A program made the translations under genes and the position numbers. A DNA stretch of 53,126 bases, filler included, from Dimargaris cristalligena (Eukaryota), in assembly GCA_003614675.1 (NCBI GenBank). It is 2 parts of 2 records of this genome, joined end to end, with 100 filler letters (N's around TTAATTAATTAA, not from the genome) between each part and the next. Parts side by side here need not be neighbours in the genome. Positions count along the whole stretch, not along the records: positions 26,625 to 53,126 come from ML002539.1; 1 more part is not named here. The stretch is one strand, 5' to 3'. Within the stretch, counting starts at the first letter, position 1, and every line of letters begins with the position of its first letter. The notes beneath the pieces are model-generated. The model ran no database searches. It was not told where the DNA came from and was given only the letters and a program-made list of their open reading frames with translations. This document shows positions 2,275-53,126 of the stretch, piece after piece.

Positions 2275-2295
2275 ATATATATATATATATATATA
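2275..2295. repeat. (AT)n microsatellite
   Basis: About 10 perfect AT units. Confidence 0.9.
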
Positions 2296-10229: not shown

Positions 10230-10497
10230 GACCGGGGTTCCCGCCCCTCCCTTGGCTTTATTTCTCGCTTTCTCTCGATCCATGCACTTCATCTTCCCTG
10301 CAGTTCTCACCCCGCCTTTCCCTCCCCTGCTTCTCTTTCTCATTACCTGTTATTAACCTACTATCCGTCCCTTGTATACTTATCATACTCCTCCCTGTGT
10401 TCATTTTATACCGATTGACAACAGTCGCTTGCTGCGCCATACATAGCATACCGACATCATCTATCCTCCGACACTTATCATTGCTCCAGCCTAAGGC

Positions 10498-12342
10498 ATG
10501 TTGGACCACCCCGGATCACATAGCCCCTCCCAACCATCTACTCAATCGAACGAACGCATGTTAACCAACCCGGAGATTCCCCGACCCGCCGAGTCGAACT
10601 CGACCGGTAGTGGCCAACCGGCCCTCGCTCCCGCAACCGCGCCTGTCAAACCCAAGCGCCGGAAAGTATCCGACGAACAGCTTGTGCTGCTCGTCGAGGT
10701 GTTTGACCAAACCGACACGCCTAACCACGAGATTCGGGAGAACTTGTCCAAGAAATTGGGCATGACCAATCGGGACGTCCAGGTATGGTTCCAAAACCGC
10801 CGGGCGAAGGTGAATCGCGAAAAGGCGAGCGCCCAGGCCGCGCGGTATTCTGGTGACCACCACCACCACCACCACCTTATGAGGGCGGGTCGCTGCCGTT
10901 CCATATCCGACGCCAGTTCAAATATGTCCTACCAGTTTGTGCCTATTGTGAGCTGCGATAAGTCCAAAACTGGGGCTGCCATGAGCCAAAGTCTGCGGGG
11001 ACAGCGTTACCACCACCCGCCCCCGATTGCTCCAAGCCCCCACTCGTCCTATCCCCCAGGTAGCCCCGGCATGGGCATGAACTACCGCCCGACAGCTAGT
11101 GCTAGCGGTCCCCTTCGTCCGCGCCGCGGCAGTCACACCGTGGATTGTGGACCTGTCATGCGGGCCAGCCCCTACTCTATGGTGAGTTCGCCCAAAACCT
11201 CTAGCCTGGCCCCGGCTATGGCTGCTGTGAGCCTAAACTCCAATCCCAACTCCACCTACCCATACCAACCGACCCACCCCCATTCGCACCGCCCCGAGCC
11301 CCTCCAGATTGGACCGCACGCTAACCGTCCCTGGGGATCTCCGACGAGCGCGGCCTCCCATTACCCCACTCCTGGGTCATCCTCGCCACTGTCCCCTGGT
11401 TACCCCCCGCTCCCTTATTCCCCTGTTACGGCCGGGGCGGCCTATTCGGCCAGCCCTCCTTGCACGGTCCCCTTCCCCCACCCGACATCGCCGTATACCG
11501 CTTCGTCCTCTGAGCAGGGCCGTTATTTCGCCCCGCACCACCAGTATTCCGGGCCCTCTGCCAACTTCTCCCGAACTCGTCGGTCGTCCTTATCCCACTC
11601 CTACAGCTGCGGCTCCCAATACATCAATTCCACGGAGGGCTACTGGGCCCGACCGGATGCCGCCATCCCTTCGCCCTCCTTCCGCGGGGAACCGATGGGT
11701 CCCGGATCAGGCCCGCACTACCACCTCCTAGACGAGATGCCAGCTAGCTATGCTCAGTCCCAAGCCAACCCGACACCCATGTCAAGCGCCGCCTCGTCTG
11801 CGACCTCTCCCTACTCCAAGATGATGGACGCGCGTGCCAGACTACCCCCTCGGGAGGATTCAAAGTACCCGGTCGACTGCAAGGGATCCCCTCCGTTATC
11901 AACGTCGTCAGCCGCTTCCCCCGAAGTGGTTGCGCCTGATACGAATGGCCAAGATCCCTTCGATTTGCTGGCCACTGCTGCTTCGCTGGTGCACCAGAAT
12001 AATGGCGCGTCCGTTCCCCCATCCTTCCAGAAATCGATGTCTCCCCAGTTGTCACTGCCTCGCCCTGTCGGTGGCGGCCTGCCCAGCCCAAGCCAGTTGG
12101 CCTCTGCGGTAGCTACCAAAACCCCGCCGTTTTCATCGGGACGAGCAGTCCTGCCACCTCTGGCCGAGGACCTTGACTGGCACCGCGGTGAGGAATCCCG
12201 CCTGCCGGTTCGCCCGAGCCACCTTACCCGACTTCGTGGGGGCGAGTCAGCTCCCCGTCGCAACACCCTTAGTGGCCCCCACGATCACCTGCCACCTATT
12301 CGTCAGATTCTGGGAATCAGGGAGTCGGAACACCGCTGTTAA
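10498..12342 (+). CDS. Homeodomain transcription factor (614 aa, intronless)
   Basis: N-terminal homeodomain KPKRRKVSDEQL...LGMTNRDVQVWFQNRRAK with the WFQNRR recognition helix (Q50); the remainder is Pro/Ser-rich low complexity; ATG start. Confidence 0.95.
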   Translation: MLDHPGSHSPSQPSTQSNERMLTNPEIPRPAESNSTGSGQPALAPATAPVKPKRRKVSDEQLVLLVEVFDQTDTPNHEIRENLSKKLGMTNRDVQVWFQNRRAKVNREKASAQAARYSGDHHHHHHLMRAGRCRSISDASSNMSYQFVPIVSCDKSKTGAAMSQSLRGQRYHHPPPIAPSPHSSYPPGSPGMGMNYRPTASASGPLRPRRGSHTVDCGPVMRASPYSMVSSPKTSSLAPAMAAVSLNSNPNSTYPYQPTHPHSHRPEPLQIGPHANRPWGSPTSAASHYPTPGSSSPLSPGYPPLPYSPVTAGAAYSASPPCTVPFPHPTSPYTASSSEQGRYFAPHHQYSGPSANFSRTRRSSLSHSYSCGSQYINSTEGYWARPDAAIPSPSFRGEPMGPGSGPHYHLLDEMPASYAQSQANPTPMSSAASSATSPYSKMMDARARLPPREDSKYPVDCKGSPPLSTSSAASPEVVAPDTNGQDPFDLLATAASLVHQNNGASVPPSFQKSMSPQLSLPRPVGGGLPSPSQLASAVATKTPPFSSGRAVLPPLAEDLDWHRGEESRLPVRPSHLTRLRGGESAPRRNTLSGPHDHLPPIRQILGIRESEHRC

Positions 12343-22134: not shown

Positions 22135-22998
22135 GCACATCCCTCCCTTCTCCATCGAGATGGTTCCTCTCCTTATCCCTCATTGGTTTTTTGCCTATAC
22201 TCTCGTCTTTCTCTGCTGCTCCGGTTCATTCCCTGCTGTCGGCATTTAATACCAGCTGCCTCACTCCTTCTCCATTGATATTAGATATTTCCTCTGTGAC
22301 TGACGATTATTTACCCCGGCTATTTTTTTCCTGCATTCTGACGCACTGTCCTCCATACTCTTCCGCATTTCCTAATAATCCCCCCCTACTTTCGCCCGAA
22401 CATACTTAGCTGGGCCTCTCCCTAGTACATACCGCTTCCTTTTTTAAGCCCCTTACGGCCTTGTCTTTATCAAACGCCCCTTATAAACCCAAGCCGCCTA
22501 CGTAGCCTTTAATTCGAAGCTACGCTCCGCTATAGACCTTATTACCCCTCTCCCCTGACTGCGCCCCATTTTCCTTCACTTGTAGTAACAAGCCTTTCCC
22601 CCTCCTAAACCCCGTGCTGTATAGCCAACCACTACTTCAACTGGCGCGTCATTGTTTGGATTGGCCTCATACCTTTCTCTCGCCTTTAACTCTCTTTCAC
22701 GACGACCATCCACTAAGCCCATTGGTGGCTCTCTCTTAGACATATACTCCCTTTGAGCGTTTCGTATTGGGCTGTTTATCCACACATCCACTTTTGGTTA
22801 GAGCCATAGTTCTTTTTACAGTATATTTATCAGCCATTTTACTGTTTCCCTCCCGCAACCATCACACTGCGTCCCATTTATTAGATCAATAATTAGAGGC
22901 AATTTCCCCGATACACTTACTTACGTAGAAATATATAGATATATATATATATATACAGATAACCCGCCTGGTCTCCAAAGCGGTCCTATTTGACTACT

Positions 22999-25245
22999 AT
23001 GAGTTCGCCGGTTCCGACCGAATATTTTCCTTTAAACAAGGCCTCCGCTGTGCTACAGTGGCTATCGGCCTTTAAAAACCAGTCCAATATCGACGATAGC
23101 GCCGAACCTGCCGACTTCACCATGCGCGCCAAACCCGGTCAGCAAACGAACAACAGCGCCCGGAACTCGTGGCGGAGTGTCCGGGTGGTCGATGGCGCGG
23201 TGTTGGACCAATACGAAATCGAACCGCATCACCACGAATACACCTCTTCGCAGTTGGGTGCTGCTCACACTCCTTCGCGGCGCACATCTAGTGGTACTCC
23301 TGAACCCCATACCTACGATGACACCCAGTATGACCTCCACCAGCCCCAACCTCAGCACCAGCATCAACGCCTGCACCATTACCAAGCGACTGGGGAAGAG
23401 GCTCAATCTGAGTGCGACCCGGACGATTTTATGACCGCTTACGGTGATGGCCAAAGGAGTGTCTTGGGGCTTGCCGCTGTACCAGCCAGTCCCCGCTACG
23501 CCACCTATATCCCTTCGCAAACACCACCCCCTCCCCCGTTACCTATTATCATTACGACCCACCGGGGGGCCGTGCCAAAGACCCCCGTCTCGGCCCACCA
23601 CCTGTTTTCTACTGACGCGGCTGACCGGTTCCCATCGTCGCTGTCGTCGACTTCGCCACCGACTTTGCTGTCATCATCGGCACCCTCCCCATCGTCGTCT
23701 CCCCCTAAATTCTCGAGTGCGCCCAGTATTCCGACCCGCAAGTCATCCATTTTAAACCTGCCGCTCCCCGTCCATACACCACCGATCTCTCCCGCCACCC
23801 ATCCCGCTACCTTGGCCGTACCACCCACCCCAGCCTCCGTTTGGAAATCGAACCTCCCCGTGCAATCTCTGGAGCAAGTGGACGCCGGAGTTACCCGCAC
23901 CTCCACCGGCCAAGCGCGGTTTATCCCCTGCAAGGAACTCGCAATTACGTTAGCTCCGCGGCGGAGTTCGGAGGACAACGTGGTGTATAACACTACCGCG
24001 GCCCGCCAGAAACAACAACAGCAGCAACAGTCGTCGCTGGCCAGCGCGTCCCGTCAATCTCTGAGTGCGATCACTGAATCCGGGGACCGGTTTGGGCGCC
24101 AGCCCCTCCGCCTCGTCGACCACAGTACCTTATTAACGGCCCTGGGTGGGAACGGGTCCGCCGGAAATGGCAAGCGGAACATGGCCCAGGGCACTTCCGC
24201 CCTGGTGATGAATTCAACGTCAGCGGCGGCTACCCCCACGTTCCCTTCGTTCCCCACCATTTCATCCACTACCTCCTCCTCTTTAAGTGGCAGCGCCGCA
24301 TTTTTGTCAACCTCACCACCAGCATCGTCCAATTTGGCCGCCTCTTCCTCCTCGCACGCTACGCCGTACTCTCTGGAGGACCCCTTGCCGTTCAGCGGCC
24401 AGAGTCACGCAACCGGTTGGCCTCGGCCCCTGACCCGCCACGTCCTGCCGTCGTCGTCCAAGCTGGGGAAACGCGGATCATCGAAACCCAATATTTCCGC
24501 TCCTCTTCCGTACTACCGGAGCCCCATTCAGGATTGCGCTTCTCCGTCGGGCCTGAACGGCGAGCACAGTACCCACCCCTACCTGCACCACCACAACCAT
24601 TCAAGCCACACGATGTCCCAGGCCCCCGGCTCAGCATCGACTTATTCTTTGGCCAATGCCGCGTCCGCTTCCGCCTACTCGATCCACCAGGGTAATGTCA
24701 ATCTGACCATGACGCCTGGGTCGACACAGGGTGTACTCAAAGCCGAAAGCCTCATCACCAAAATGTACGGCTACTGGGCCCAAGAAATCGCCCTTCTCCA
24801 TAGCTCTTCGAGTGGTAGTGGTGGTAGCAGTAGCAGTCATACCTATGTCTCCCCTACCCCCAAAATGCCCTCCACCCCGGCCTTTCCCAGTAATCACTCC
24901 GCCGCTGCACCCCAAAGCCCCCGATCCGACGCCTCCTTCTGGACGCCGCCCACCTCCCCCACCTTACCCCCATCGGCTCTGGGGACCCGAACCTACCTCC
25001 TTCCCAATGGGACCAGTAACCACCTCCCCGCGTCGGCCACCGACAGTCAGGTTGACTTGAATCAGTCCGTGGATTATAACGAAGGTAGCCGTATGGGCAG
25101 CAACATCCGCGCACCCGTGGGGTTAGAGTTCATCCAGCAGCGGAGGGTCCTTAAGCATATCTTCTTTGAAGCTCTGGTGTCGGATCCGACAATGGCCAAT
25201 TTGACCATCCAACTGTCCATGCGGTCCACTGATATGGAATGTTAG
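22999..25245 (+). CDS. Hypothetical Ser/Pro/Thr-rich, largely disordered protein (748 aa)
   Basis: 2.2 kb open frame with GC-rich coding-like composition; first ATG is at 22999 (the track starts at an upstream TTG). No recognised domain; only short ordered-looking segments at the N-terminus, around LITKMYGYWAQEIALL and at the C-terminus. Confidence 0.8.
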   Translation: MSSPVPTEYFPLNKASAVLQWLSAFKNQSNIDDSAEPADFTMRAKPGQQTNNSARNSWRSVRVVDGAVLDQYEIEPHHHEYTSSQLGAAHTPSRRTSSGTPEPHTYDDTQYDLHQPQPQHQHQRLHHYQATGEEAQSECDPDDFMTAYGDGQRSVLGLAAVPASPRYATYIPSQTPPPPPLPIIITTHRGAVPKTPVSAHHLFSTDAADRFPSSLSSTSPPTLLSSSAPSPSSSPPKFSSAPSIPTRKSSILNLPLPVHTPPISPATHPATLAVPPTPASVWKSNLPVQSLEQVDAGVTRTSTGQARFIPCKELAITLAPRRSSEDNVVYNTTAARQKQQQQQQSSLASASRQSLSAITESGDRFGRQPLRLVDHSTLLTALGGNGSAGNGKRNMAQGTSALVMNSTSAAATPTFPSFPTISSTTSSSLSGSAAFLSTSPPASSNLAASSSSHATPYSLEDPLPFSGQSHATGWPRPLTRHVLPSSSKLGKRGSSKPNISAPLPYYRSPIQDCASPSGLNGEHSTHPYLHHHNHSSHTMSQAPGSASTYSLANAASASAYSIHQGNVNLTMTPGSTQGVLKAESLITKMYGYWAQEIALLHSSSSGSGGSSSSHTYVSPTPKMPSTPAFPSNHSAAAPQSPRSDASFWTPPTSPTLPPSALGTRTYLLPNGTSNHLPASATDSQVDLNQSVDYNEGSRMGSNIRAPVGLEFIQQRRVLKHIFFEALVSDPTMANLTIQLSMRSTDMEC

Positions 25246-26524
25246 ATCTGGAACAAACCGGTTTTTTTATAGTCCATTGCGCCATGTAACCCTTCCCCTC
25301 CCCTCCTTACAACATCCTCTTCCTTTATCTCTCTGACACAGGGGTTATCCGCACCTTTCCTCGCGCCTCACCTACAGACGCATCTGAAGGAACATAAATC
25401 ACCATCCAGTATTCTTGTTTAAAATCACTGTTACTATTTCCTGCACCCCTCAATTACTCGTAAAATATGACATTGATGGTCATATCAAGTAGCTAACCAC
25501 TCTATCATTATTAGGTTTACAATTGCTACGGACATTATCTTTCTTTTCCTATTTCCCCCCATCTTTCCATGGGTCATCCCAAAATGGACTTTACATGACG
25601 CTTACATCTTAATGACCACCGATATGCTATAGTATTATTTCGTCCAGGCCACCTACTTTTGGTTGTACTTTAGTTCTCTCCCGATCTGAATTTGGCTACT
25701 AAAGGGTGGGTGACTTACTCGACTATTTTATGTTCTATCTATACCCAATATATGTATAACTATGTGCCATAATATAAACCACTTATTAAAAAAGCTCTGT
25801 TAGCCACACATAACTTCAATGAGTGATTTACATCAGGTAATTCTTTGATATAAGGTCGATTCCAACGTTCGCGAGAAGTGAACGCTAACAGTACTTTTTG
25901 ATTTTTTGTGGATATTCGCGCCTGGATTGACATGAATCAATGCATATTTTCAGCCACCCTCACAGCTCTTTTTTTCTGAACCATTCACTTAACGATGCCA
26001 GTTGTATAAACTAAGGCTAGAGAAGGGGTCGAGTTCTTTACAACTGGGACTGCCGGATAACCCCATCAAGGGGTGGGGGGTTCGACATACGACCCCAGTG
26101 AGTAACCGGGATCGTTCTATTTTTCAATGTACACATGCAGTGGGCACTATAAAATACGATTTAAAAGGGATTCGAAATCATATTGATGAGCAGCCCAACT
26201 GATCAGCGGAGTTGACTGATTAAGGAGGTGATGGATTATCCGGTTGCATATATATCACTGCAAAAATTGCCATATATTCACTAGTTCGACTTTCAACTGG
26301 CCAAGTAACAATATTCATCAGTTCACTGTTAGACTGGCGAATCAACGTATAACACGTCCATCGAAATTGATCACTTAATACGGATTGCATACTTTTAGCG
26401 TAGATTCTATATAATTATTATTAGGGCTGGCGCGCGCTTTTTTGAGGCTTGCCAATCTATTTTTCTAAAATGGAACCCGGGGGGGGGAAATAGGAAAAGA
26501 AAGATAATGTCCGTAGCAATTGTA

Positions 26525-26624
26525 NNNNNNNNNNNNNNNNNNNNNNNNNNNNNNNNNNNNNNNNNNNNTTAATTAATTAANNNNNNNNNNNNNNNNNNNN
26601 NNNNNNNNNNNNNNNNNNNNNNNN
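26525..26624. other. Artificial contig/scaffold linker (N44-TTAATTAATTAA-N44)
   Basis: Exactly 100 nt and symmetric; the central 12-mer places stop codons in all six frames. Confidence 0.97.
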
Positions 26625-26653
26625 ACTGATCCTCGATTTATAAGTAAGAACTA

Positions 26654-26690
26654 TGAATACTGAATACTGAATATTGAATATTGAATATTG
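26654..26690. repeat. 7-bp tandem repeat (TGAATAY)x5
   Basis: tgaatac tgaatac tgaatat tgaatat tgaatat tg, next to the contig end. Confidence 0.85.
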
Positions 26691-28488
26691 GAAAAACGGC
26701 CTAGTCATTGAATGGCTTATAACTGGGTGGGAAAAGATGAAGACTGGTATTTGGTGATGTTCTTCATCTTCCTAAACTAAAAATAGTTTGGCCGGGATAT
26801 ACTATTAGAGATTAAGCAGGCCCGGCCACAACAGGGGATAGGGGAATTCAAATAGCCTGATTTTTTAACTTTTGCAAATAGAAAACCTGTGTGACTAGTG
26901 TACTTTTCTAATGTAAAATTACATAATGGTTTGTGGAAGTACGTGTGGTATGTTTGAGGGATATACCAGATGAATGGGTGGACTCACCCGTAGTTACAAA
27001 TTGATTTATCGAATTCAATGGGGGCTGTTGAAAAATATGTCTGAACAGATCTATTATTTTCTCTTGTTTCTGACTAATTACATTAATTTATTTAGTTATT
27101 CTTTGTCCTCTCATTTTAACTATTCAAAATGACCCCTACCAACTACACTATTTTATAGAACTAGCCACCTAGAGGCACCTGCCATCCTCTAGCCACTTTC
27201 TTTCATTTTAACTATTTTTATTAACACTCCATTAGTATTTTTATTAAATTCATCAATAACCATTTATTAATATATTTATAAGAACTGTGCCCCCTTCCTG
27301 ATAATGGCTATTTTCAGGTATTTCAATATTCATTTATATAACTACCAAACTCTACCCATCATTATTATGGGGTCTCAAAGGGCCTATATGAGGATTATTC
27401 TACATTACATCTAACTAAGAAATTTGAATGTATTGTACTTAATAATCCATAGGATTAAAGTCAACTAACTATGAAGGACTAGGCGCCATCACCACCTAGT
27501 TCTATCAGTGAGGCGCGGGAATTCGGTCTTGTTGAAGGGTCACCTTCCTTCAACCATTCCTGCCACTCAATTTGCCTATTCCATATATCCCCTTCATTAT
27601 ATATCCATATATTATTAACTATTCATTATACCACTATCTAGTAGCGTATTCTAGCATACCTTACGCTGGCCCAATGTCTTTATCATTAGTTCCCTCAGCT
27701 ATATACAGCCGAGTCAATTCCTATAGTTATTCTTGAGTAAATGACCATTTATTCTATACCCCCTTTTATAGTTAACTTGATCTATTTGATATTCCCGTAT
27801 TTCTTATCTATAAATCGCCCTTCCCATCAACTATGTGTGTGTTATTTTTTGTAAACTCGTCCAAGATGCGGACACTTAATCATCCCTTGGATTATTGTCT
27901 ATGACAGGATGGTTAATATAAATAGAATATCTAATCTTTCTATGAAACCAGTGGCATCCTTTATTATTTTAGCTCATTCCTGTACTGCTCACCTCTAACC
28001 AAATAGTTTTGATTCCAATAGCTAGATAGCATATGACGGATATGATATTTAGAGCCCCCACTATTTACACTAATGGCTTTATGAGTACCTGATTCAGAAT
28101 GGGCCCAAATAATAACCAAAGCCCCAAACATTTCCTTATTTATCTACAGGATAAACATAACCCATTCTACCCATAAAATGGTGGTTTTCCAAACCCACCC
28201 TTTGTAATTGAAATTAATTTACTATACATTCCCAGAAACCTATATTCCCTAGAGAAAAGAATGTGACAGACACTGGCCCCAGTTCCTATACGTGTATGCA
28301 TCGACGAGTTTTACATCAATCAAAACAAGTCAGAACATAACATAATTTATTAAACCGAAAGATTATAAAGGAAAAGTTGACCCAAATAAAAGGTGGCCGT
28401 CCGAAAATAGAAGACGGGTTACAGTCAGTGAGACCATTTGAGAGTGGTGAGACACATCCCAACTGGCTTAACCTACCGATGGCTGGTG

Positions 28489-29178
28489 TTATTCATTGCT
28501 GGGCGGGCAGTTTGCTTCCTGACCACAGCTACTAGAACCTGATTGATGTCTTGTTACGTAATCCTTACGGGGGAATCTCTCACCACACCCCTCGCAAGCA
28601 AAGGGTTTTTCACCCGTGTGAATACGCAGATGACGATTGCGATCATAGGCACGGGTGAACTTTCTTTTACATACTGGACAGTCAAGTCTATTTTTCAGTG
28701 TATCCGCCGTCTGCTGATAGATGGGTAGATGGCTATCATCCCATGCCTGCACTTCGGCGTCGTCCCAGTGTGGTGACATGGGTGTGCGAGGCAGGTGTTC
28801 CGGAACCGGGAGGCTACCGCTCCCCGAACCAGAACCCGAACCACGGTGACCTTCAGTGGAATGGTCAAGGGATGCATCCTGTCCGTAGATGTGGGCTTGA
28901 CTAACTTCCGCATTGTCCATGTAGTGTTCGAGCGCTCTAATGTACAAGTCCAACTCGTAGCCGTTAACTGATGCAATATACTCGTAAGTTTCTGCATTTG
29001 ATGCATCCCTGTAAAGGGGACCCTGGATTAGATGCATAGCTGCAGTTTCGTAGGGGATATCAGGGCTACTGGGATTGATGTAGTTATTGAGGTTGATATC
29101 TTGGGCATTCTGCTCGGAGGCGTGGCTGGGAGTGAGTGCGCCCAGGATGAGCAGGCATGTCGCTCCAAAGAGGCGCAT
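28489..29178 (-). CDS. C2H2 zinc-finger protein with predicted N-terminal signal peptide (229 aa)
   Basis: C-terminal CPVCKRKFTRAYDRNRHLRIH-TGEKPF-ACEGCGERFPRKDYVTRHQSGSSSC (C2H2, canonical linker, C2HC-type finger; 28525-28680); N-terminus MRLFGATCLLILGALTPSHA has signal-peptide architecture; start context CCAAATG. Confidence 0.9.
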   Translation of the reverse strand: MRLFGATCLLILGALTPSHASEQNAQDINLNNYINPSSPDIPYETAAMHLIQGPLYRDASNAETYEYIASVNGYELDLYIRALEHYMDNAEVSQAHIYGQDASLDHSTEGHRGSGSGSGSGSLPVPEHLPRTPMSPHWDDAEVQAWDDSHLPIYQQTADTLKNRLDCPVCKRKFTRAYDRNRHLRIHTGEKPFACEGCGERFPRKDYVTRHQSGSSSCGQEANCPPSNE

Positions 29179-32100
29179 TTGGCTGAGGATAGACAGGGGT
29201 GGGCGGAAAACTGGAGGCAGTAAGGTCAGACAGGTGGGGGGATTCCTGTCAAGCGAAAATAATAATAAAAGAAGTAATAGACTCTTGAAGTAGTTAGAGG
29301 TGAAGAGCTAGCGTAATGGTGAATTAGTTGGCAATGAAACCGGCCAAAGTGTATCCCAAGTGTAGTGAAGGGTGAAGTGGATGGCGTTCGAATATGGAGG
29401 CGAACCTGAGTCTATTTAAATAGGTTTGAAAGAGGACTCCACTTGTTCGATTGGTGTTTTTGTTGAGCCTGGATAATTCCCAAAGGACATTCCGCTGCAG
29501 TCTCTTCGCCCCCGAATCTACTATTAAGCGTAGGTCGGTCACACTAAAGTATGAGGGTGCCTTCATTGAGTTTTATATGGGGGTACATGGTGTGCTCGGT
29601 TGCATATTAGTTAGGCCAGGGACTTACAGAAATATAATCATCACCATGTAAATATGCTTCGTCTCGTCTTTATCCCTCGAAGTCCTATAGCACATTTCAC
29701 TAACCCCCCTTTCCTCACATAATACCCGGAAGGTTGTACTACTAAGCTACAGTTGCCGGTGGGTGATACGGCTGTTGCAAAAGTAAGTATGACCCGTCTC
29801 GTTGACCTATGAATCCACCTAAAACACTTTCCCTCGTTGCCGAGATTTCTGCTTTTCACAACCCCCCGTTGGCCTCAAAAAGGCCCGGGTTCCACTCTTT
29901 GCTCGCAAGCAAAAATTATATACCTATATTATTGTGGCGTAGTACCGGAAGTTTGAGAAATCATAATACCAGCCACTTCAATCTATTTAGGGCAGACTCG
30001 TTTGCTTTATTGGCTTGAAAATGACTTTTTTGGGTTCCATGGAATAGCCTGTCGTCCTCGCCCCACCACTGTGCGGATGCGGTTACTGAAACTAGGCGGG
30101 TGAATGTCGAAAACCAGCGGTGTCTATTATTAATATAAAAATAAAGAGGAAAAGGAGGGGGATGGCAATGGCAATGGCAATGGTTCTCAGCGCTGGATGC
30201 CAGCAACATAGTATGGCAATTATTATATTTTATTGGAGCAACTTCGGAGGTAAAGCGAAGTCGAACGATATTGGAAAGGCATCTCATACATTGCACGTAA
30301 CAGTAGATGAGCTCCAATGTATAAGGCAGATGCGGCTGGTTAGGTAGTGGTTACTGATAGGTATGCATAGAGTACTTAACTATTAGTAATAGCGTTTATT
30401 CTAGAAAGTGGTTTCCTAATAGGATGCAATAGTATGATTGCCACATATGGGGACCGCACTGGACAGACCAGGATACTGGGTTTATCAGCTGGGCCATAGA
30501 CCAGGGTAGTAGATTGCTGAGTGATGGCATCCCGAATGTCTTCCAGCCAAGAGGGATACAACTCATCTATTTCTTCGATATTCAGCCTAGTACCCAATGG
30601 GAATAATCAGTATCATGTCTAGGATAGTTCATTAGGGTGCCCGACTCCCATATCTATAGCCTACTTGGCCAATTCTCCCAATTATACCAGGCCGTTGTAA
30701 ACATTACCATTTAATTCCCCTTGGAACAGGCGGTATATTTCTGACATTTATGCGAGCCTCTTTCTACATGCATTCCCTTTAGAGACTTGCTTTGGAGTGC
30801 AGTTCTATACGTTGATATATATCCCTTCCCGGCAATTGGCCCAGGCTGACAGGGGGGCCAGTCTAATAGGTTTTTACTCGAAGAGCTCCAGTGTGACCCT
30901 GGCATGATAAACCATCTTGACTGTAGCCTAAACAAGCAGACATACATAATAGTGAATGAATACCGCTGTTTGCGTCGTACAGTATAATGTCCAATTATAT
31001 ATAAAAATCCCAAACACCCATTGGTGGCAATAATTTGCGATTTTTTTGGTGGAAAAGCCTCAGTTTATAAATGAACGCAAGGAAGAGATGGGGGATACTA
31101 ATTCGCACATGGGCAGATTGATAAAATTTCGAGCCAAGTCGAATAAGGGGGGGAGAGATAAAATGAACATATGCAAATGATCATTTCGATTTGCGACAAA
31201 AGCAATACTATAACGGATTTGTTAGTGACACCATGGGCTTTGGTTCCGCACAGCAGGCAGCCTGGTCGACACGGGCTAGGGCCAAATCTATCGACACTAG
31301 CAGATCAACTGAAGAGAAATATATATGCCTGATGGGGTAGGTGATGGTTACTACCAGCGTATCAATATGGTAGTACGGCAAAACTAGGATAAGAGGGGTA
31401 TCATCAACAGCCAAAAATCCAAATGATGACAGAATTTACATCCTCCTGTAGAGGGATAGTGGGGAGGGAGTACAATTGTAAATAATGGGAGTTGGGGGGA
31501 TGGTGCATAAATTCAAATGTGATCGGATAATGGGTGATATGGTGGTGGGTCAGTGGGGGCCTAGATTCGGTGTTGAACCTATTCAAGTCGAAATGCCTCC
31601 AACCCCTTTGGCAGCCATTAAAAATGATTTCGGATACAATTTCTATCAGGTGTGCAGATAGGAAGTGCTGGGCTGCTATACCTTTGATGTCCTAGGCTTA
31701 GAAACATGAGGTGCAGGCTTAGTTTTGTTCTCAGGATGTTTACATTTCAACATGGAAGGGTCAACCCCGGCTAAGAGGTACAGGGTTGACTGAGAAGGCA
31801 GATGGGCTGGATTTGAGGGCATCAGATCTCTAAAGGTTGATTAAAGTGGAGTGTAGGTAACCAAGAATTAAAATGGCCAAAGTACTCGGAAAATACTAGT
31901 GAAAATAATAAGGGTTTATTTTTAAAATGTATGGTTTCAAAAATACAACTTCCACTGGATAGACTGATGTTTTTATTTCCTTCACGGGATTCCAGTGTCT
32001 ATTATTTGCAAACTAGGATGCTATGCGAGCACTAATTGCTTTACCAAAGACAACATCAAAAGACAATCAGTAAAAGTGATGATGATATGCCTGCGTTGAA

Positions 32101-33578
32101 AAAACCTGAACAATTAAACGCATCGCCAAAAATTAGTCACAGCATTGCTAATATGGAAACGGACAGAATTGCTGTTGGATAAATACAAGCAAGCTAAACC
32201 TGGGATTACTGGATTAATCCAAGGCAGCGAGATTGGATGTCCACCACTGACGGTTCAGCTTGGCCTGCCAGACGGCTCTACAAAATTATTCACTAATGGC
32301 ATATCCATAATTCCAAAAACCATTGAATTCGGTGGTTTGATTCGGCTGGCTAGTAGATAAACGGAAGGGGTGGGAGGGTTGAACTCTACCCTAAAAAGGG
32401 TTACTTATAAACGGACCTCGGGAGTTTCATGTGCTGGTAGTTAATGACCTATAACCGCAACATCAAACGAAGCCACAGCCAAGGAGGATCCCGAATAGGA
32501 GGACCAGGACCAAACTAAGAACCGGAAGGACCCAGCAGCTCTCCTCAAAGGATGATAAATTTATATTCAGAAATTGAACAGGAATAGGCGGAATTAGATA
32601 TCCTTTGATGGATACCTATTAAGCCTAAGGTATTGATAAACAAGGAACCGAAATTCCCTAGATTTCGGGTGCTATTTCTTAAAGTGGGAATAGTTTGATG
32701 ACGGATAATCGGGGGGTTTCCTTTCGAAGATTTTCTTACTGGACGGATTTTGCGAAGGCTAGTGCCCCAACCCCCTAAACACATCCAATAAAAGCAGGAT
32801 AGAATGCATCAATTGTTGCATTAATAAATATAGTCACCATTGCTCATTAAGTTTATTTATTCAAACTCCCAGTCAACCAGTGACTAGTATAAAGATATTG
32901 CAAGAGAGAGAGGGGGGATGGCCATTATTACGTTATGGTAATTAACGCTTAATATAACACCAGACAAAAACTGGGAGGTGGGGGAATAACAGGTTACTTG
33001 CGAGTCATGGAAAAATCAAATCATGATGGGAAAGGGAGGGAATCATCATGCACATCAATGAATAGCTAGAGTACTAAGGACATGGTAGAGGCAGGCGGGA
33101 GAAATGGGGAGAGAATTAGCATGGCCAAGACATTAACAAGTAGGATATATAAAGGGCCACACACCACCATCATTCAGGCGAAGGGGAACAGCAGCATGCC
33201 TAGATGGTAAGTAAATAGTTGTCAACCAGGGTGCCGCATTGATGACCACAGTTGACCTAAAACCCAATAAGAGATTAGGTGATTATATACTCAAACATGT
33301 TGGAATATAGGTTAAGAAATAAAGAGCATATGTGCTATATATATATATAAAGATGTGTATAATATATAGGAATGTAGGTGTATGTACGCATCAAAACGGG
33401 TGTGTAAAGAGAGATGGATGGGGTAGAGAAAGGCCGAGATTACGGAGATGGTTACAGACGGAGAGTACCAAAGATATGAGCAATCTCATCATAAATACCG
33501 AATATAAATATATAAACTATATGGAATTGTTATTTTTTTAGGGTAGAAAGGCCACCATTGTTCCGTGAGATCTAAAGC

Positions 33579-36500
33579 CTATTCGATGGGGATTGTGGAC
33601 TTGAGGTGGTAGTTAACCAGATTGAGGGGATTGCCATTCAGGGGGGCGGCATTAGGCGACACAACAATCGAAGGACTACGGCTGCGGCTATGGTTACGGG
33701 AGGTAGGGATGGTACCTCCTGACATTGAAGGAGACCCCATATCCGATGAGATATGGTAGTGATGGAGCACCTGCTGTTGCTGGTATTGTTGGTGAGAAGC
33801 AGCACCATCCCCATGACCAAGGGCATCTCGACTTTGGCCGCTCACCGGTCGGGTCCCGGAGGGAGCTAACGAGACCAACCCACCATTCCCGTATTTCGAT
33901 AATGAGGACATCATGGGTGGAGGCGGCATCGTGCTACTTGAGAACATTAACGGGGTAGTCGATCCCCCACCTACAGCGCCTACCAATTTGGAAGGATCGA
34001 CCGGGGTGGAAGCTGCGCTAGAAATGCGCACTGTTCCGGAAGAACTCGTTGATGTACAGCTACCCGACCGCGACGAACTCCGCGGATATTGCTGGGCGCG
34101 GGCGCGGGCCTGCTGGCATAATGTCGTGTACCGACCAGCTTCGGCGTAAAGTCGGTCGAATTCGCCACCAATCTCTTCACGCACCCGGCGGTTCCAATTG
34201 GGCAACGTTGATGACAAGCAGGGGTGCGAGTGACCAGACAGCGACGATGATGACGAGGATGCCGACGACCGATGGCCACCCTCTGCATCACCGGTGGTGG
34301 TTTGGGGGCCAACATGGCCAGAGATCGAGGCGGCTGACGCGGATAATTGGTCGCTTTTAGTTAAGTTGGCGGTTGGGGGAAACGAAGCCGACGAAAGCGG
34401 AGCAGTCTCGCGATTAATCATAATCGCTTCGTAGTCGGGGCGCAGTTTACGGAACTCAGTAAGCAATTCCATAGTGAGGTCGAGGAACAATTCCAGGTCG
34501 CATAAGGGATCCCGATGGAAAACCTGCTCCGCAGCCACCGTTACATAAGCCAAGAGAACATTGGTGGTGGAAAAATGCCGGGTGCGATTGAGGGTTGCGG
34601 CGGCGGCAGAAGGAGCATTCGACGGCGTGGAAGTAGGAGTGTTAGAGGCACCGTTCGAGCCTGATGCGGAGGGGGTAGGGGGCGTTGACAGCGACTTTAT
34701 GGGTGGAACCGGGGCCTGCTGCTTCCGCTTTCCGGCTTCGGCTTGCATAAAATGGGTGAACACTTCCTGCCATGGTGTAACGGAAGCGGTCTGGGAATAG
34801 TCTAATAAGAAGTAGTCCGAAAAATACGGCCGGAAGTGTTGGGCGTTACTACTACGTCGGGAGCCGGCGGGCGTGCTGTTGGAGGTGGGCGACTGTTGGT
34901 CATCCTGCACGAACAACATGCGGGAAAGTAGGTGGGAGAAATCAATGACCAGGTTGATACAAAAGCCGTGCAGTTGGGTCACCATATCGTTGATGGATGA
35001 TCCGCCATCGTCACCCACACCACCTTCCGAAAGCGCAAAACTAGTGGTTGAGTACCCCGGGGTAAGAGGTGCGGCGTGACCATTACTGCTGGGAGCCAGA
35101 GAACTAGATCCATTCGACAAGATTGAGGTGTTGGAGAAGGAGGCGATGGACGAGTGTCCTTCAATTTGAAACATAGTTGTGATCCCGAGGTCGTGCGCTT
35201 TCATCAAGGCCTTATCCAAGACCCGGTTCAGGGGCGTAAATTTCCGGGGATCGGGTGGACCCCGCCTGAAGAAAGGACGGAGGTAGGGCAGGTTCTCGTG
35301 GAACAAGAACTCGATGGATTCCTTGGGGTCGGTCGTTAAGAACAAGTGAAGTAGCATAGGACAGGTGAGAGTGGTCGCTTGGCGCCAATAGTCCAAGTGC
35401 AGCTGGCCGTACTTAATGAGACAAAAGTAAAACATATCGTCCACCTCTAGGTCGGATGAGGTGAGGAGATAGACTGCCCCCAGAAAGGGTGCCGAAACGC
35501 TTAATTGGGCCAGGCGGGCTAGTTTGGATCCATCAAGCCATTGGAGGTCGTGGAACATCCAGGGATTGGGCACCTCGTAGAGCCGGGCCCGCTCGTTACC
35601 GTAGAGGCAAGCATTAGACAGCTGATTCACGGTTTCGGAGGAAGAGTCCTTGGCCAGGTAGCGGAGGCGATCGAGCCCCTTCAGCGCAATCTGCTTTAAA
35701 CTGGCCGACTGGCGGGCAAGCAGTAACAGTGCGGAGATTTCGCGCAGACAGCGCACTCGCTGTTGGGTGGTATTAGCGGACGAAATAGCCGTCAAGCGAA
35801 CCGACATTTTATCATCCCGATCGATGATACGGTGGTGCATGCCGTCGTTGAGCAACAGGTTGAGGCAGCACCCAAAGGCGGATGCCTTATCTTGTGTGTC
35901 GAAGACAGGGGAGTGAATGGAGTGACAGAGAGGATTGGCGCAGTGAGGAGTGGAGCAAATGATATCGCGGGTAGAGTCATACACCATTATCCGCAGATTG
36001 ATCAAAAAGAGGCGATCCAGGATCGACACGTCTTTCTCGCGGGCCAATCGGCCGAGATCCCATTGAGTGATTGCATCCATGTCAAGCCTATCAGTACATG
36101 GTCCAATATTAAATGGGGCATGCGCAGAGAAGTATACACAATGGTAAAGGAATAGTGGTTAGTGAATGAGCCAACTAATTCTTAAATGTGACACTGGAAA
36201 AAGCAATCATCACCAAGTGCCTCAAAAACCAGCCGAGTGTGTAAACAACGAAGTATGAACAAATTAGAGGTGACGGCCAAAAAAAAAATAGAAACAACGG
36301 CTTAGTAGAGAAAAGGGAGAAAGAAATAGAGGAAGTAGGTGGGCGAGGATTCAAATGAGAAATAGTGACCAATATTCGCAATTGCCTATTCTGAGATGAA
36401 GGTGGATGGGTGAACCCATCGCTCCACAAGTCCCTCCTGGTATGTAGCCAACATTGGTGGCAGGCGTAAGCCACAAATGGCGAAATAAGTAAAAAATAAT

Positions 36501-47078: not shown

Positions 47079-49394
47079 CTAAAATTTAATAGCTATGTGG
47101 CCTGTAATCTAGAAGTGCCCCTTAAAATCCACTTGGTGACCTACAGCCCAAAGCTACTAGTCCACTTCGCCATATATAGTCGAGCATACAGTTATCCCTC
47201 ACTCCTTAATTAATCAGTCGTTTACTTCAATTTCCCCGTTCCTTGTTAACCCATTGCTTAATAGATATCAGTAACCCTGTTTTTGCCATCTTATTTAGAG
47301 CACCTCCCTTCCTTATATTGGGACTCAGTAAGTATACTATGTCTAGACAGGGGAAAATCCCGGAAATGACTGGAATACCCTACATGATCCGACACTTGTT
47401 GGGATACTGACGCCCTATTATATTCTGTCCGCCGTTCCATTGTCAGTGCCGCCCACTTCACTGGGGAGACTATAGGCATAACCATGAAGTATGCCCTCTG
47501 GTAGTCTCTTTAATTTCCTAAATTGAAAGATTTGCAGCTCCCTTAAGGTCCAGTTACCTTTTTTCCTTTCGTGCCTTTTCATATATATATATTTTTCATG
47601 GGGGATCCTAGTATAACGTATGGTCGACGATTGCTGTATATCTGGATCAGAGGGAGGATTTTTTTTATAGGTTTACACGATTAGTTAATAGTTTATGAAC
47701 CGTATTTACGATATCAGTTCCCGTTTTTAGCAGGGGAGATTTATCGCTGTCCGTGACGTACATTCGCCACCAGATTAAACATTGGCCCAACCTGGTTGAT
47801 ACCACTTTGTTTGTTTACTCGCTTTCCAACTGACGGCAAAACCCCGGTGGTTTCGTCCATTCACCGATTCCTAGCGCTGCGGCAATTCGTAATTGAATTT
47901 GCCATACTTAACCTTTCGGTCTCTATCGCTTACTCGCTACGATTTGCCATTAGTCTTGCACTCGCTGGCGCTGTATAAATACCGCCATATTTTCCATTCT
48001 CCTAATAAAGCAGACCATTTGATGTCAGCATTTCCAGGAAAACGAGTTCCTGCTTTGCGTAGTCTTTTAGTGTTTAAGTGTCATCCCGAGTATTATTTAG
48101 TGTCTTACGAGTATTGTCTGAGTATCAGTGTTTTCCGAGCATATTTATTACCGGGTATTTATTAGTATATCCCAACATCATTGATGACAGGAAACCCTTC
48201 TGCCCTCAGTATCCTGTCCCTCGCGAACTCCCCACAACAACCCCATACCCCCACCACCCCAAAGGTGATATATGTATCAGTTTAAAATATTATTTTTTAT
48301 TAAAACATGGGGAACCCGGGTTTCCGAGTAATAGGCTCGGTTTTATACCCCCGGTTCGTTTTCGTGTTCGAGCGGGTCGGTAAACCTGTTCGTTCGGTGC
48401 TTGACGGGATATCCTGGGATGATGGGTCGCGTGGCCTGTTCGGTTTCACGGGTGTTCCCCATACTTAGCTGTTCCACTAAGCCATCCGCCTACGCGGTAT
48501 ACCCCATTCTATCAATACTTTGATGTCATTTTCCTTTGTTGCTTTATTGTAATCAGCCTTTTTTCCACCTACTGTATTACTATGCCTGTAATGCATAGCA
48601 GCCATGCAAGTAGTATACCAATAAAGGTCTGTTGATAAGATGTTAAGGAGAGCCATGCTTCTTCTGTGATGATTGGGATAGGCAGACATGGGTATTCAAA
48701 ACGAGTATTTCTAGAATCTCAGTGACTCATAGATTACTTGATATTCGACTGCTATTGTAGGAATGGCCCTCAAATACCGGTACTAGCGTGAAAATATGCA
48801 CCTCATTATTCGGAACGTGCTGTCGCCAACTCTTCCAACTATGTCATCTGAGGCTACCATCTCTAGCAACTGGTTGCCAAGCAGATGCCTCATCCTGACT
48901 AGTCTAACAATGGCTTACCTCCGAGTCAGATTCAGAACAGGGGGGTAGGTATTTAATATCCACAGCATATGCAGGAGAGTACTGGACAGCATAACTGTTA
49001 GGCATGCAAAGTAATAATTGCAGGATGAGCTGTCCCAATGCATAAGCAAAATACGTGGCTAATTAGCCTTGCGACCAGGGCATCGTGTCAACCGTTGTAA
49101 GAGAATAGGTATATCGGTCCGCCGGACCATGAATGTTCCAGTTAACCCGGCCACGAGGATCCAAGGGAATTGGACTCAGGTAGTTTCCCAAACGACAACC
49201 TCATCGTGTTCCTAGTTGGGTATAAATAGTGGCAATAGAACCATCGGCATAGGCAAGATCCGTAAATCAACCCCCTATTCTCTGCCCTCAGAGTCTCTAA
49301 TGCTTAAGTAGTATCTTACATTTTTGTCCATCGCTAGTATTCACCACCACCCAATTCATTTAGTTACTGTTACCCCGGTCTCGATTTATCCACC

Positions 49395-52300
49395 ATGTTC
49401 GGCTCTACTTTTACCCCCAATTCCCCCCGCATTCACTTGCCCGTAGTCCCCGCAGACTACCAACCGACCTTCAGCCTACCCCTCGGCAAGCCCCGCTCCA
49501 ACCTATCGGGCAATGCTTCCTGGTGCTATGGTGTTTCCTGCCCCTATTTAAAGGAACTACTGCGTCAAGACCAGTTCAAACAAGGGGTTCAGTTGACCAC
49601 TGCCATTATCCTAAGTCGGTACTACCGCCAGCCTGCAGTCGCTTTTGCCCACTGGTCGGGCCAGTTCGGACCAGGTGATATCATGGACCAACCTCTGGAA
49701 AAGCCTGAATTGGTTCTGGCGCAGGTGAGCCCCGATGCCCTTTGTTCCGCTGCCCTCCTGCAAAAGCCCGCCCCCAGTGGTATTCCTGACTCGTTGGGCC
49801 CAATGGTCGAAGTTGTGCTCCACACTGACGAGGATAGCACCAGCGTAACCACTCCCTGGTCCGAAATCGACGATAGTCACAGTCAGCCCAAGGAGGCCGA
49901 GGCAGACCCGAAGATCGTCCATCTACTAGCCCGAAGTAACGCCCATTTGGCGGTTAGTTGCACCCATAACCAGGTGCATGTCCAGGTCACGATTACCTAC
50001 GCCCGGGCTCAGTATCGTAATTCAGCCGTAGCAGAGTTCACCAGTCAGTTCGTAACTGTCTTTTCAGTTGTTGCCCAAACATTGGCAAGTGGTCAGTCTA
50101 ACCTTGTGCGCGATATTTCGTGGGTTAGCGACCGGGAACATGCCCGCCTGTTGGAGTTCTCCCAAATGGCCAAACCAACCCAAGGGGACTACCGGCCTTT
50201 CCAATGCCAATTCAGTGACTGTGCCCAACGCTTTCCTGGCCATATTGCCTTAGTCCGCGGCGGCGAAGAGTGGACCTATGCCCAACTGGACTACGCCAGT
50301 TCGGAGCTGGCCCGCATTCTAGTTGATCAATACGGGTCCTGTCCCGAGGTCCGAGTCGCCCTACTCGTCCCTAAGTCGATTGCCTATAATGTGGCCATTG
50401 TGGCTGTCCTCAAATCGGGGGCCGCCTACGTACCCCTCGACCCCGACTACCCAATCGACCGAATTCAGTATATCCTGACGGACAGTGACGCAGCAATGTT
50501 AATCGTGGCTGAATCAGTACTCGGAAAACTGCCCGGTCAGACTACGCTACCTACTGTGATCATTGACCCGTTCGCCCAGAAGCCGGTATTTACGGATCCA
50601 TCCGACTTCCAGTCCTTCCAATCATCCCCCAGCGATTTGGCCAACGTCATCTATACCTCGGGTACGACGGGCCGCCCCAAGGGTGTCTTGCTCGAACACC
50701 GCGGCATAGCCAACATAGCCTCTGATCCATGTTTAGGGGATACCTATGGCCTGGGCCGCCGCGCCCTTCAAACTGGGTCGATTGCCTTTGACGGCGTGCT
50801 TGTGAATACCCTCCGGTCCCTTTGCACCGGCGGTACTATCGTGGTCTCATCGGACAATCTGCTGGAGGACCTGAAGCATGCTCATACGGGGTATCTCATG
50901 ACGTCATTCCTCTCTCGCTTGCATCCCCACGACACTCCGGAAATGAAGGTATTTGGGGTCGGTGGAGAATCCCTGCTACCGGAACACCACACCCGCTGGA
51001 CCCCTCACTGCTACATAGCCAACCATTATGGGCCGACAGAAACCACCGTCTACTCCAACCTAGCCTTGATTGGCCCAGATGATGATATCAATGTTGGTAA
51101 GCCTACCCGCAACGTTTTCAATCTCATCGTGGACGAGGATCTTCAACTAGTGCCCGTCGGGGCTCCCGGTGAGATACTCATTGGCGGGGCGGGAGTGAGT
51201 CGGGGCTACCAAAACCTACCGGAGCTGACTGCCGCTAGGTTTATTCTGAACCCCCATGGACCGGGTCGCGTATACCGCACCGGTGATTACGTTCGCTGGC
51301 TCCCGAATGGAACGGTCGAGTATATCGGTCGTATCGACAACCAAGTCAAGTTACGAGGGTACCGGATCGAGGTTGAGGAGGTTGAGAATGTGGCGATTCA
51401 ATTCCCCGGACTTAAACAATGCGCAGTGGCCGTGGTTCAGGAAACCTTGGTCATTTATGCCAGTCCCGCAAACATCGATTCGGCCGGCCTATTGAGCTGT
51501 CTAAGGGATCGGCTTCCTAAACAAATGATACCCGAGTTTGTGGTGCCGGTAGTGGACTTTATCTACACTGCTTCGGGCAAACTGGACCGTAGGTCGCTGC
51601 CCTCCGTTGATCACTTATTGGCCAGCCATGCACTGTCGTCCACTACTAGATCTGAAATTAACGCCCCTCAAACTGATATAGAAGAAGAACTTCGCCGGGT
51701 CTGGGGTCAGATTCTACAGTTGGACCCCGATCGCATCAGCACCACTGACCACTTTTTTCGAATCGGCGGTGACTCTATTTCGGCGATTCTGCTGGTGTCC
51801 AAAGGCCAACAGTTGGGATATCAACTAACCGTGCCATTAATCTACCAGTACCCCGAGCTCCGACAGTTGGCCCAGCACACTGAAAAGACTACTAGCCGGC
51901 AAGCTAATGTGAACGCCGCCTACCAGGAACAAGTCCAAGGCGAGGTGGCTTTGACGCCTATCCAATGTTGGTTTAGTGAAATTGGTCTTTGTAACCCCCA
52001 CCACTTTAACCAGTCCTTTACCCTGAAGGTCAATTACAAGGCCAATTTGTCATTGACGGCCATTTATGACGCCTTAGTGGCCCTGGCCAACCATCACGAT
52101 ATTCTCCGGGCCCGATTTTGTCCCAATGAGGACAGTCAGTCATGGGTCCAGACGATACCTACAACTAGAGCCGTCCCCACTGACTTTCTGGTTTTGGAAG
52201 AGATGGTTTCGTCCGAAAACTATGCCGACTTTATCCTGCGGGTCCAATCCAGCCTTAATCTTACTACGGGACCTGTGTTGGCAGTTGCCCTGATCCACGA

Positions 52301-53126
52301 CCCGGACAGTACCTCCCCGCCCCGCTTATTCATCACCATCCACCACATCTTGGTGGACCTGGTTGCCTGGCGAATTCTGATTGAGGATTTGAATACCCTG
52401 CTCCGAGGTGCCTCACTTCCGCCGAAGACATTGCCTTTCCAAGTCTGGGCTTCCCAGCTCGATAATTATGCAGCAGCTCTGTCGGCGGATATATGGCCCA
52501 CCCAAGTAGACTCTGGCCGGCTCACTCCCGATATCCGGGCCCTCCTTCCACAGCCTGAATTGGGTGCTACTTGTACTCAGGCTGCCCGTCTCTCCACGTC
52601 TTTCGAATTCGACTCTGAATCCACGCACTCACTATTGTTTCAATTGGCCCCACAGCTACGCGTCACTCCACGCGACTTGCTTCTGGCTACTTTCACCCAG
52701 GCCTTTGCCACTGCCATTGGGCTCGACCAGGTTACTTTTTGCATGGAGGGACACGGCCGTGAGCCGTGGTTATCTGATCAAGACATTACCCGAACCGTGG
52801 GCTGGTTTACCGCCCTCTACCCCCTCGTTCTTCGGGTTCGGTCTGGTCAGTCCATACTGGACCTGTTACGCCACACCAAGGAAACACTGCAGCAAATTCC
52901 AATGAAGGGGTTTCCCTATTCCCTGTTGAATTACATGCCAGGGGTTTCCATGGAAGAGCGGGCCAAGTTGGAGGCCCAGACCCCGACTCGCCTAGATGTA
53001 CAGTTTAACTACTTTGGTCGTTTCAACAATACCGGCGGTGACCAAAGCGATGATATATTATCCATTGAATGGTCGGACTACTTTGGTCTACATGACTTTG
53101 CCCCTCAGGACAAGGTTATTTATGAT
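49395..53126 (+). CDS. Non-ribosomal peptide synthetase, 5' part (partial C - A - T - E), truncated by window end
   Basis: Open frame of 1244 codons from CACCATG to the window end, absent from the track because it has no stop. A-domain motifs WTYAQL, LKSGAAYVPLDP, YTSGTTGRPKG (50652), NHYGPTE, GEILIGGAGVSRGY, YRTGD, GRIDNQVKLRGYRIE, SGKLDR; T domain FFRIGGDSI (51765); epimerisation motifs LTPIQ.WF, HHILVDLVAW (52341), EGHGRE (52746), RTVGWFT, FNYFG. Confidence 0.96.
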   Translation, partial: MFGSTFTPNSPRIHLPVVPADYQPTFSLPLGKPRSNLSGNASWCYGVSCPYLKELLRQDQFKQGVQLTTAIILSRYYRQPAVAFAHWSGQFGPGDIMDQPLEKPELVLAQVSPDALCSAALLQKPAPSGIPDSLGPMVEVVLHTDEDSTSVTTPWSEIDDSHSQPKEAEADPKIVHLLARSNAHLAVSCTHNQVHVQVTITYARAQYRNSAVAEFTSQFVTVFSVVAQTLASGQSNLVRDISWVSDREHARLLEFSQMAKPTQGDYRPFQCQFSDCAQRFPGHIALVRGGEEWTYAQLDYASSELARILVDQYGSCPEVRVALLVPKSIAYNVAIVAVLKSGAAYVPLDPDYPIDRIQYILTDSDAAMLIVAESVLGKLPGQTTLPTVIIDPFAQKPVFTDPSDFQSFQSSPSDLANVIYTSGTTGRPKGVLLEHRGIANIASDPCLGDTYGLGRRALQTGSIAFDGVLVNTLRSLCTGGTIVVSSDNLLEDLKHAHTGYLMTSFLSRLHPHDTPEMKVFGVGGESLLPEHHTRWTPHCYIANHYGPTETTVYSNLALIGPDDDINVGKPTRNVFNLIVDEDLQLVPVGAPGEILIGGAGVSRGYQNLPELTAARFILNPHGPGRVYRTGDYVRWLPNGTVEYIGRIDNQVKLRGYRIEVEEVENVAIQFPGLKQCAVAVVQETLVIYASPANIDSAGLLSCLRDRLPKQMIPEFVVPVVDFIYTASGKLDRRSLPSVDHLLASHALSSTTRSEINAPQTDIEEELRRVWGQILQLDPDRISTTDHFFRIGGDSISAILLVSKGQQLGYQLTVPLIYQYPELRQLAQHTEKTTSRQANVNAAYQEQVQGEVALTPIQCWFSEIGLCNPHHFNQSFTLKVNYKANLSLTAIYDALVALANHHDILRARFCPNEDSQSWVQTIPTTRAVPTDFLVLEEMVSSENYADFILRVQSSLNLTTGPVLAVALIHDPDSTSPPRLFITIHHILVDLVAWRILIEDLNTLLRGASLPPKTLPFQVWASQLDNYAAALSADIWPTQVDSGRLTPDIRALLPQPELGATCTQAARLSTSFEFDSESTHSLLFQLAPQLRVTPRDLLLATFTQAFATAIGLDQVTFCMEGHGREPWLSDQDITRTVGWFTALYPLVLRVRSGQSILDLLRHTKETLQQIPMKGFPYSLLNYMPGVSMEERAKLEAQTPTRLDVQFNYFGRFNNTGGDQSDDILSIEWSDYFGLHDFAPQDKVIYD

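Follow-up and report, generated by a model that had tools for sequence, protein, structure and literature searches.

A candidate secreted C2H2 zinc-finger effector of the haustorial mycoparasite Dimargaris cristalligena

C2H2 zinc fingers joined by TGEKP linkers are normally nuclear, and each classical finger reads about 3 base pairs of DNA. In the stretch of Dimargaris cristalligena DNA analyzed here (53,126 nucleotides, filler included; hereafter the window), one reading frame places a pair of such fingers behind what looks like a signal peptide. The initial annotation took the product to be a transcription factor that may be exported into another cell, for example a fungal host, and considered it the best candidate for an undescribed system in the window. 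Is this a real gene, would its product leave the cell that makes it, and what could its fingers do elsewhere?

The gene and its predicted product

The uninterrupted 229-codon frame of the initial annotation was found again as a single-exon coding sequence (P0001; 28489..29178, (-)) that stays open to a TAA stop. Its product aligns with the paralog P0032 over the full length, and no intron is required for this. Upstream of the start, the nearest in-frame stop is 44 codons away, with no ATG in between. Sequence matches alone place a TATA-like TATTTAAATA (29413..29422, (-)) 235 nt upstream of the ATG and an AATAAA (28346..28351, (-)) 138 nt past the stop. The contig of a second study carries four differences within 27853-30200, two of them inside the ORF: a synonymous change at H187 and the substitution T175A (2 substitutions in 690 nt). 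The frame of 229 codons is intact in both studies, and one synonymous against one non-synonymous change is too few for any statement on selection. T175A is also the one residue among 229 by which the hypothetical protein H4R33_002199 of D. cristalligena differs from the window protein. This match names the producer, and the earlier suggestion of a mycoparasite with haustoria is supported, as members of its order, the Dimargaritales, are described as parasitizing Mucorales and Ascomycota by means of haustoria (PMC3734964). In the best explanation overall, the ORF is a real single-exon gene of this mycoparasite.

The protein opens with a signal-peptide-like stretch (residues 1-20; 29119..29178, (-)), MRLFGATCLLILGALTPSHA, made of MR, a hydrophobic core and TPSHA. 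Its sole Arg is at position 2 and is followed by an uncharged run of 16 residues (3-18). With cleavage after A20, where we infer it, Pro falls at -4, Ser at -3 and Ala at -1. The most hydrophobic stretch of the entire protein also lies within these 20 residues. The Arg n-region, hydrophobic core and cleavage site described before are thus borne out as sequence features.

Behind the presumed cleavage site lies an acidic N-module (residues 21-112; 28843..29118, (-)), which is lineage-specific, common to a family of related proteins and free of both Cys and N-glycosylation sequons. It leads into a GSGSGSGSGS linker (residues 113-122; 28813..28842, (-)), with similar runs in the paralogs P0003, P0028, P0032 and P0027, and then into a Pro-rich spacer (residues 123-160; 28699..28812, (-)) that is weakly conserved among the paralogs. 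The spacer contains the acidic-aromatic stretch WDDAEVQAWDD (residues 138-148; 28735..28767, (-)). Residues 21-160 together have a pI of 4.31 and a charge of -17.8. The acidic-aromatic middle and the Gly-Ser linker of the initial annotation are therefore both present, but their order is reversed, the linker coming before WDDAEVQAWDD. The idea that this stretch is an activation domain was dropped because it is poorly conserved in P0003 and P0032. For the N-module there was no Pfam family, no PDB sequence match and no usable Atlas match (Atlas query, residues 22-160). An AF2 model built from an 8-row family alignment reached a mean pLDDT of 43.5, with residues 1-147 below 50, and the module is probably flexible or helical. 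Outside the fingers, the window protein matched no known protein in Pfam, the Atlas or the PDB sequences.

The C-terminal part, residues 161-229, is basic (pI 9.27, charge +6). Taken together, the sequence features suggest a small secreted protein whose mature part would combine the acidic N-module, the Gly-Ser linker and a basic two-finger C2H2 region, a reading that we favor with some reserve.

The zinc fingers and the family

Finger 1 (C167-H187; 28618..28680, (-)) has the spacing C-x2-C-x12-H-x3-H and includes KRK at 171-173 as well as T175, the residue that is Ala in the other isolate. A TGEKPF linker (residues 188-193; 28600..28617, (-)) connects it to finger 2 (C195-H211; 28525..28596, (-)), which reads C-x2-C-x12-H and continues with QSGSSSC, without a second His. 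The previously described pair of TGEKPF-joined fingers is consequently only half canonical. The linker and finger 1 fit the consensus, but finger 2 has Ser in place of the last His and no His within 3-5 residues. C218, at H+7, is a possible fourth ligand judging from its position, and finger 2 also gave a weak zf-C2HC_2 match (residues 195-213, E 0.0084). By eye, finger 1 has R180 at the usual core Leu position. The basic KRK patch noted earlier is present, but it lies inside finger 1.

Despite these departures, Pfam zf-C2H2 (PF00096) scored 39.7 bits over 2 stretches (E 4.9e-10), where the curated cut-off is 25.2. Searches of PDB sequences gave 136 matches at E <=0.001. The best 60 of the 136 all map to residues 150-216, and the matches among those listed are DNA-binding arrays (ZNF568, Aart, Zif268, KLF4 and WT1). 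Residues 162-216 align with Zif268/EGR1, ZNF568, KLF4 and WT1 with a best E of 6.8e-36, a value summed over repeats. The window protein shares the C-x2-C-x12-H spacing and the TGEKPF linker with these classical arrays. In contrast to them, it has only two fingers, the second without its last His, and an Arg at the core Leu position of the first. It also has a preceding putative signal peptide, which the nuclear factors do not. Fungal factors of the Crz1/Msn2 type have a C-terminal pair of C2H2 fingers, and the window protein likewise has its pair at the C-terminus. The initial annotation had likened the pair by eye to Crz1-type factors; the matches to the fingers were all generic C2H2, and the nearest Atlas clusters in feature space were unnamed fungal C2H2 fragments. 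For both fingers AF2 drew short strands and a helix, at a pLDDT of only 67-75.

Relatives were sought with the N-terminal part of the protein. An exhaustive phmmer search with residues 1-160 against 1.84 billion representatives gave 8 matches, and 4 were kept as relatives. P0024, P0025, P0026 and P0029 were rejected as repeat or low-complexity matches, in which short stretches are repeated 6-12 times and neither the signal peptide nor the module aligns. Profile searches with word seeding, two in number, brought P0032 into the family and bore out P0027. The signal peptide and N-module define a family of at least 7 dispersed loci, a count to be read with the fact that one profile search missed the known members P0022 and P0023. 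All members are filed under D. cristalligena names, save one sequence (P0030) that is also filed under Syncephalis pseudoplumigaleata. A single-protein scan of JGI metagenome contigs gave 154 pattern matches, none of which was confirmed.

The members differ mainly in what follows the module. The window gene/P0002 (229 aa) has two fingers, as does P0032 (238 aa), whose fingers are both canonical (Pfam E 2e-9). P0003 (190 aa) ends within finger 1, and there are no fingers in P0022 (123 aa), in P0023/P0030 (156 aa) or in P0028 (175 aa). In P0027/P0031 (1491 and 1554 aa) the module heads a long protein whose residues 1292-1481 are an AI-2E_transport domain. Over the 7 loci, the annotated models therefore give a finger pair at 2, a cut in finger 1 at 1, no fingers at 3 and a membrane protein at 1. 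This variety may partly reflect truncated or fused gene models. The similarity of P0027 and P0031 to P0032 stops where the fingers would begin, in both annotation sets. These models reflect a genuine fusion, or else gene prediction has joined two genes into one. P0023 and P0030 are one identical 156-aa sequence under two accessions, one filed under D. cristalligena and one under S. pseudoplumigaleata, a mycoparasite of a different subphylum. Cross-contamination of assemblies seems a likelier reason for the double filing than gene transfer.

P0032 is 36% identical to the window protein overall and 29% in the mature module, and both share the order of signal, module, Gly-Ser run and finger pair. 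A chance fusion, a wrong start or a gene-model artifact is unlikely, since so diverged a paralog keeps the full architecture. P0032 is thus a second family member with both peptide and fingers.

Since 4 of the 7 loci are annotated as finger-less or cut, and a membrane protein is joined to the module at one more, the family may be able to do without its fingers or be in the course of losing them. The two departures from the consensus, together with the finger-less and shortened paralogs, weaken the case for DNA binding as the core function of the family, as judged from the sequences. One explanation is that the family is secreted and works through its signal peptide and N-module, for instance at the interface or in the cell wall of the parasite, the fingers being vestigial or decaying, or else an extracellular Cys-rich or metal-binding part. 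The six Cys of the C-terminal part could indeed form disulfides instead of binding zinc. A complete finger pair in only 2 of the 7 loci, with P0003 cut and none in P0022, P0023 and P0028, agrees with this explanation. So do the two residues missing from the window copy, the core Leu in finger 1 and the final His in finger 2, both of which P0032 has, including a canonical HQSIH at the site of the lost His. Likewise, the module at the head of the AI-2E_transport protein in P0027/P0031 would face the lumen or the outside. On the other hand, two paralogs have kept the finger pair although identity between their mature N-modules is down to 29%, the window fingers still score above the Pfam cut-off, and nothing is missing from the TGEKPF linker, a hallmark of DNA-binding arrays. 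In addition, the short models may be truncated predictions. We consider this explanation unlikely on balance, but it survives better than the other alternatives.

The putative export signal and the start codon

The signal-peptide-like start was compared across the family with a crude rule of our own (an uncharged run of at least 12 residues and a 9-residue Kyte-Doolittle mean of at least 2.0). All 10 family sequences passed, and none of 22 unrelated proteins did. Ala at -1 and Ser or Asn at -3 are present in 10/10, and the uncharged, hydrophobic run is 13-19 residues long across the family. The initial annotation had named relatives without the hydrophobic N-terminus as evidence against export; every one of the 10 has kept it. 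The signal region is on average 58% identical, compared to 37% for the mature module (15 pairs, six paralogs). An export signal that is better kept than the faster-changing mature part is the pattern of fast-evolving secreted families. None of the 7 loci has an ER-retention ending, and no N-glycosylation sequon occurs anywhere in the window protein.

Whether the annotated start is the true one bears directly on secretion. The initial annotation had pointed to a CAG just before the ATG as a candidate acceptor, and it is there, 5-7 nt before the ATG at the end of a pyrimidine-rich tract (29183..29210, (-)). From the sequence, the tract and its CAG are a possible 3' splice site, which would imply an intron in the 5'-UTR or an upstream exon. 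This is one of the observations that would fit an ordinary nuclear factor of Dimargaris, whose hydrophobic N-terminus would be no functional signal or whose real start would be a different one, in an upstream exon or at a downstream Met. The established nuclear role of TGEKP-linked C2H2 fingers would fit it too. The exact window protein was also absent from the protein collection, such that the annotation of the window may differ or omit this model. Several findings argue against this alternative. In two annotation sets (locus tags BJ085DRAFT and H4R33), each of the 10 family sequences starts at the equivalent Met and shows one common 20-residue pattern, and no part of the family is better conserved than the signal region. 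The next Met of the window protein is residue 48, which is inside the conserved module. No family protein matches anything upstream in the window. Moreover, a hydrophobic run of 13-19 residues is too short for a membrane anchor. An ordinary nuclear factor is therefore improbable here, more so than a family that works through its N-module.

The family leader was also compared with those of known translocated effectors. Oomycete RXLR and Crinkler effectors have a conserved N-terminal leader and a variable C-terminus. The Dimargaris family resembles them in that its leader, the signal peptide and N-module, is common to loci annotated with different C-termini and is better kept than the remainder. 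It differs from them in that no RxLR, dEER, LFLAK-like, LxAR or CHxC motif was found in the first 160 residues at any of the 7 loci. A single YFC was seen in P0028, outside the N-module. One might speculate that the signal peptide and acidic N-module are a Dimargaris-specific delivery leader that takes different cargoes across the haustorial interface, the members with fingers acting on promoters of the host fungus; we regard this as a long shot. If it were true, neither a nuclear effector translocated into the host nor a translocation module would have been described before for fungus-fungus parasitism or for a zygomycete lineage. The shared leader could be tested as a delivery module.

Proposed action and genomic surroundings

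The most likely mode of action, which we propose by analogy and only tentatively, is that of a secreted C2H2 effector acting in the host nucleus, as for MoHTR1-3 of Magnaporthe oryzae in rice. The mature protein would enter the secretory pathway, be released at the haustorial interface between parasite and host, and reach the cytoplasm of the host fungus. Inspection of the window protein by eye, against the consensus, gave no classical NLS. With the 20-residue signal removed, the protein is 23.4 kDa, and the passive limit of nuclear pores lies above this size. Passive entry into the nucleus is thus possible, and small size could suffice for the mature protein to enter the host nucleus without a classical import signal. 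There, the fingers would bind a short DNA site, and the acidic part might activate or otherwise disturb host transcription.

We weighed several observations for and against such an effector. The intact ORF, the signal features in 10/10 sequences, the signal as the best-kept region, the restriction to one species and the isolated position of the gene were counted in its favor. So were the lack of an ER-retention ending and of sequons, the N-module without Cys, the full architecture of P0032 and the finger matches to DNA-binding arrays. The degenerate fingers, the poor AF2 model, the lack of a translocation motif and the CAG before the ATG were counted against it. The zinc fingers would also have to fold in, or survive, an oxidizing secretory pathway, which is a further point against it.

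The initial annotation had presented a secreted zinc-finger factor as an undescribed system. This did not hold up, because secreted C2H2 nuclear effectors, MoHTR1, 2 and 3, are already in print (PMC7672089; PMC10189765). As described there, M. oryzae is predicted to secrete 20 proteins that carry a DNA-binding domain, which is of the C2H2 type in half of them, and MoHTR1 and MoHTR2 are secreted and were seen in rice nuclei (PMC7672089). These two were chosen to test DNA binding through the C2H2 domain, and binding sequences were sought by protein-binding microarray (PMC7672089). MoHTR3 is described as a signal peptide, an NLS in the middle and a C-terminal C2H2 domain (PMC10189765), and the parts of the window protein (putative signal peptide, middle region, C-terminal fingers) follow one another in the same way. 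Going by the published descriptions, MoHTR1-3 and the window protein are alike in being shorter than 300 aa and lineage-restricted; all begin with a signal peptide, in the window protein a putative one, and end in a C2H2 domain. The differences are also clear. In the published descriptions MoHTR1/2 are likened to the single-finger GAGA factor, whereas the window protein has a TGEKPF-linked pair. Its host would be a fungus rather than a plant, its lineage is Zoopagomycota, and it has a conserved N-module common to finger-less paralogs.

The window protein is, from its sequence, a credible candidate secreted effector of a kind already described. What would be new compared to that kind is the fungal host, the Zoopagomycota lineage, the linked finger pair and the leader module shared with finger-less paralogs. 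The literature that we searched held no paper on secreted zinc fingers or nuclear effectors of Dimargaris or other mycoparasites, with the caveat that secretome supplements may list the gene. It also reported nothing on host control by haustorial mycoparasites of early-diverging fungi. If the family were delivered into host cells, it would be an independent second example, after rice blast, of a parasite that exports a C2H2 factor of its own. It would also provide a small, testable set of candidate effectors for fungus-fungus interaction.

The surroundings of the gene are sparse. It is the only ORF of at least 130 aa in 25245-33579 (8.3 kb), and searching the window by tblastn with six family proteins gave this gene alone, the one further match being 17 residues long (E 0.77). 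The DNA downstream is AT-rich, with a GC of 0.29-0.38 at 26501-28500. In both runs the summed depth of contigs climbs from 63-181 to 460-7000 at two places, about 27700-27950 and beyond 30178, where contigs also break off with loose ends. The rise in depth and the breaks indicate dispersed repeats on both sides of the gene. GC3 of the gene is 0.507, compared to 0.59-0.67 in five long ORFs nearby, which also counts against an effector.

The least probable alternative is a young, unexpressed or dying copy with no present function in a repeat-flanked, gene-poor stretch: GC3 below that of the neighbors, the degenerate finger consensus, the truncated family members and the repeats on both sides would agree with it, but a 229-codon frame that is intact in contigs from both studies and differs between them at only 2 of 690 nt, TATA-like and AATAAA motifs where expected, and a domain order common to the window protein and P0032 make it very doubtful.

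Some other features of the window were seen along the way. Two 44-N runs (26525-26568 and 26581-26624) lie on either side of TTAATTAATTAA, and a perfect 43-nt inverted repeat (25518-25560 / 26482-26524) runs right up to the first of them. Together, the N runs and the inverted repeat have the look of an artifact (a scaffold join, or a chimera formed in assembly or amplification), not of a biological feature. The two long ORFs that border the gene-poor interval, at 22963-25245 (+) (760 codons) and 33579-36158 (-) (859 codons), are Ser/Pro/Thr-rich and matched no Pfam family at E <=1e-5. The genes elsewhere are ordinary ones. There is a 615-codon frame (10495-12342, (+)) with a homeodomain at residues 52-105, as well as a mitochondrial carrier and a kinase fragment. 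A long ORF running off the window end (49338-53126, (+)) has AMP-binding, PP-binding and Condensation domains and is NRPS-like, which fits the description of D. cristalligena as rich in secondary-metabolite genes (PMC9866270).
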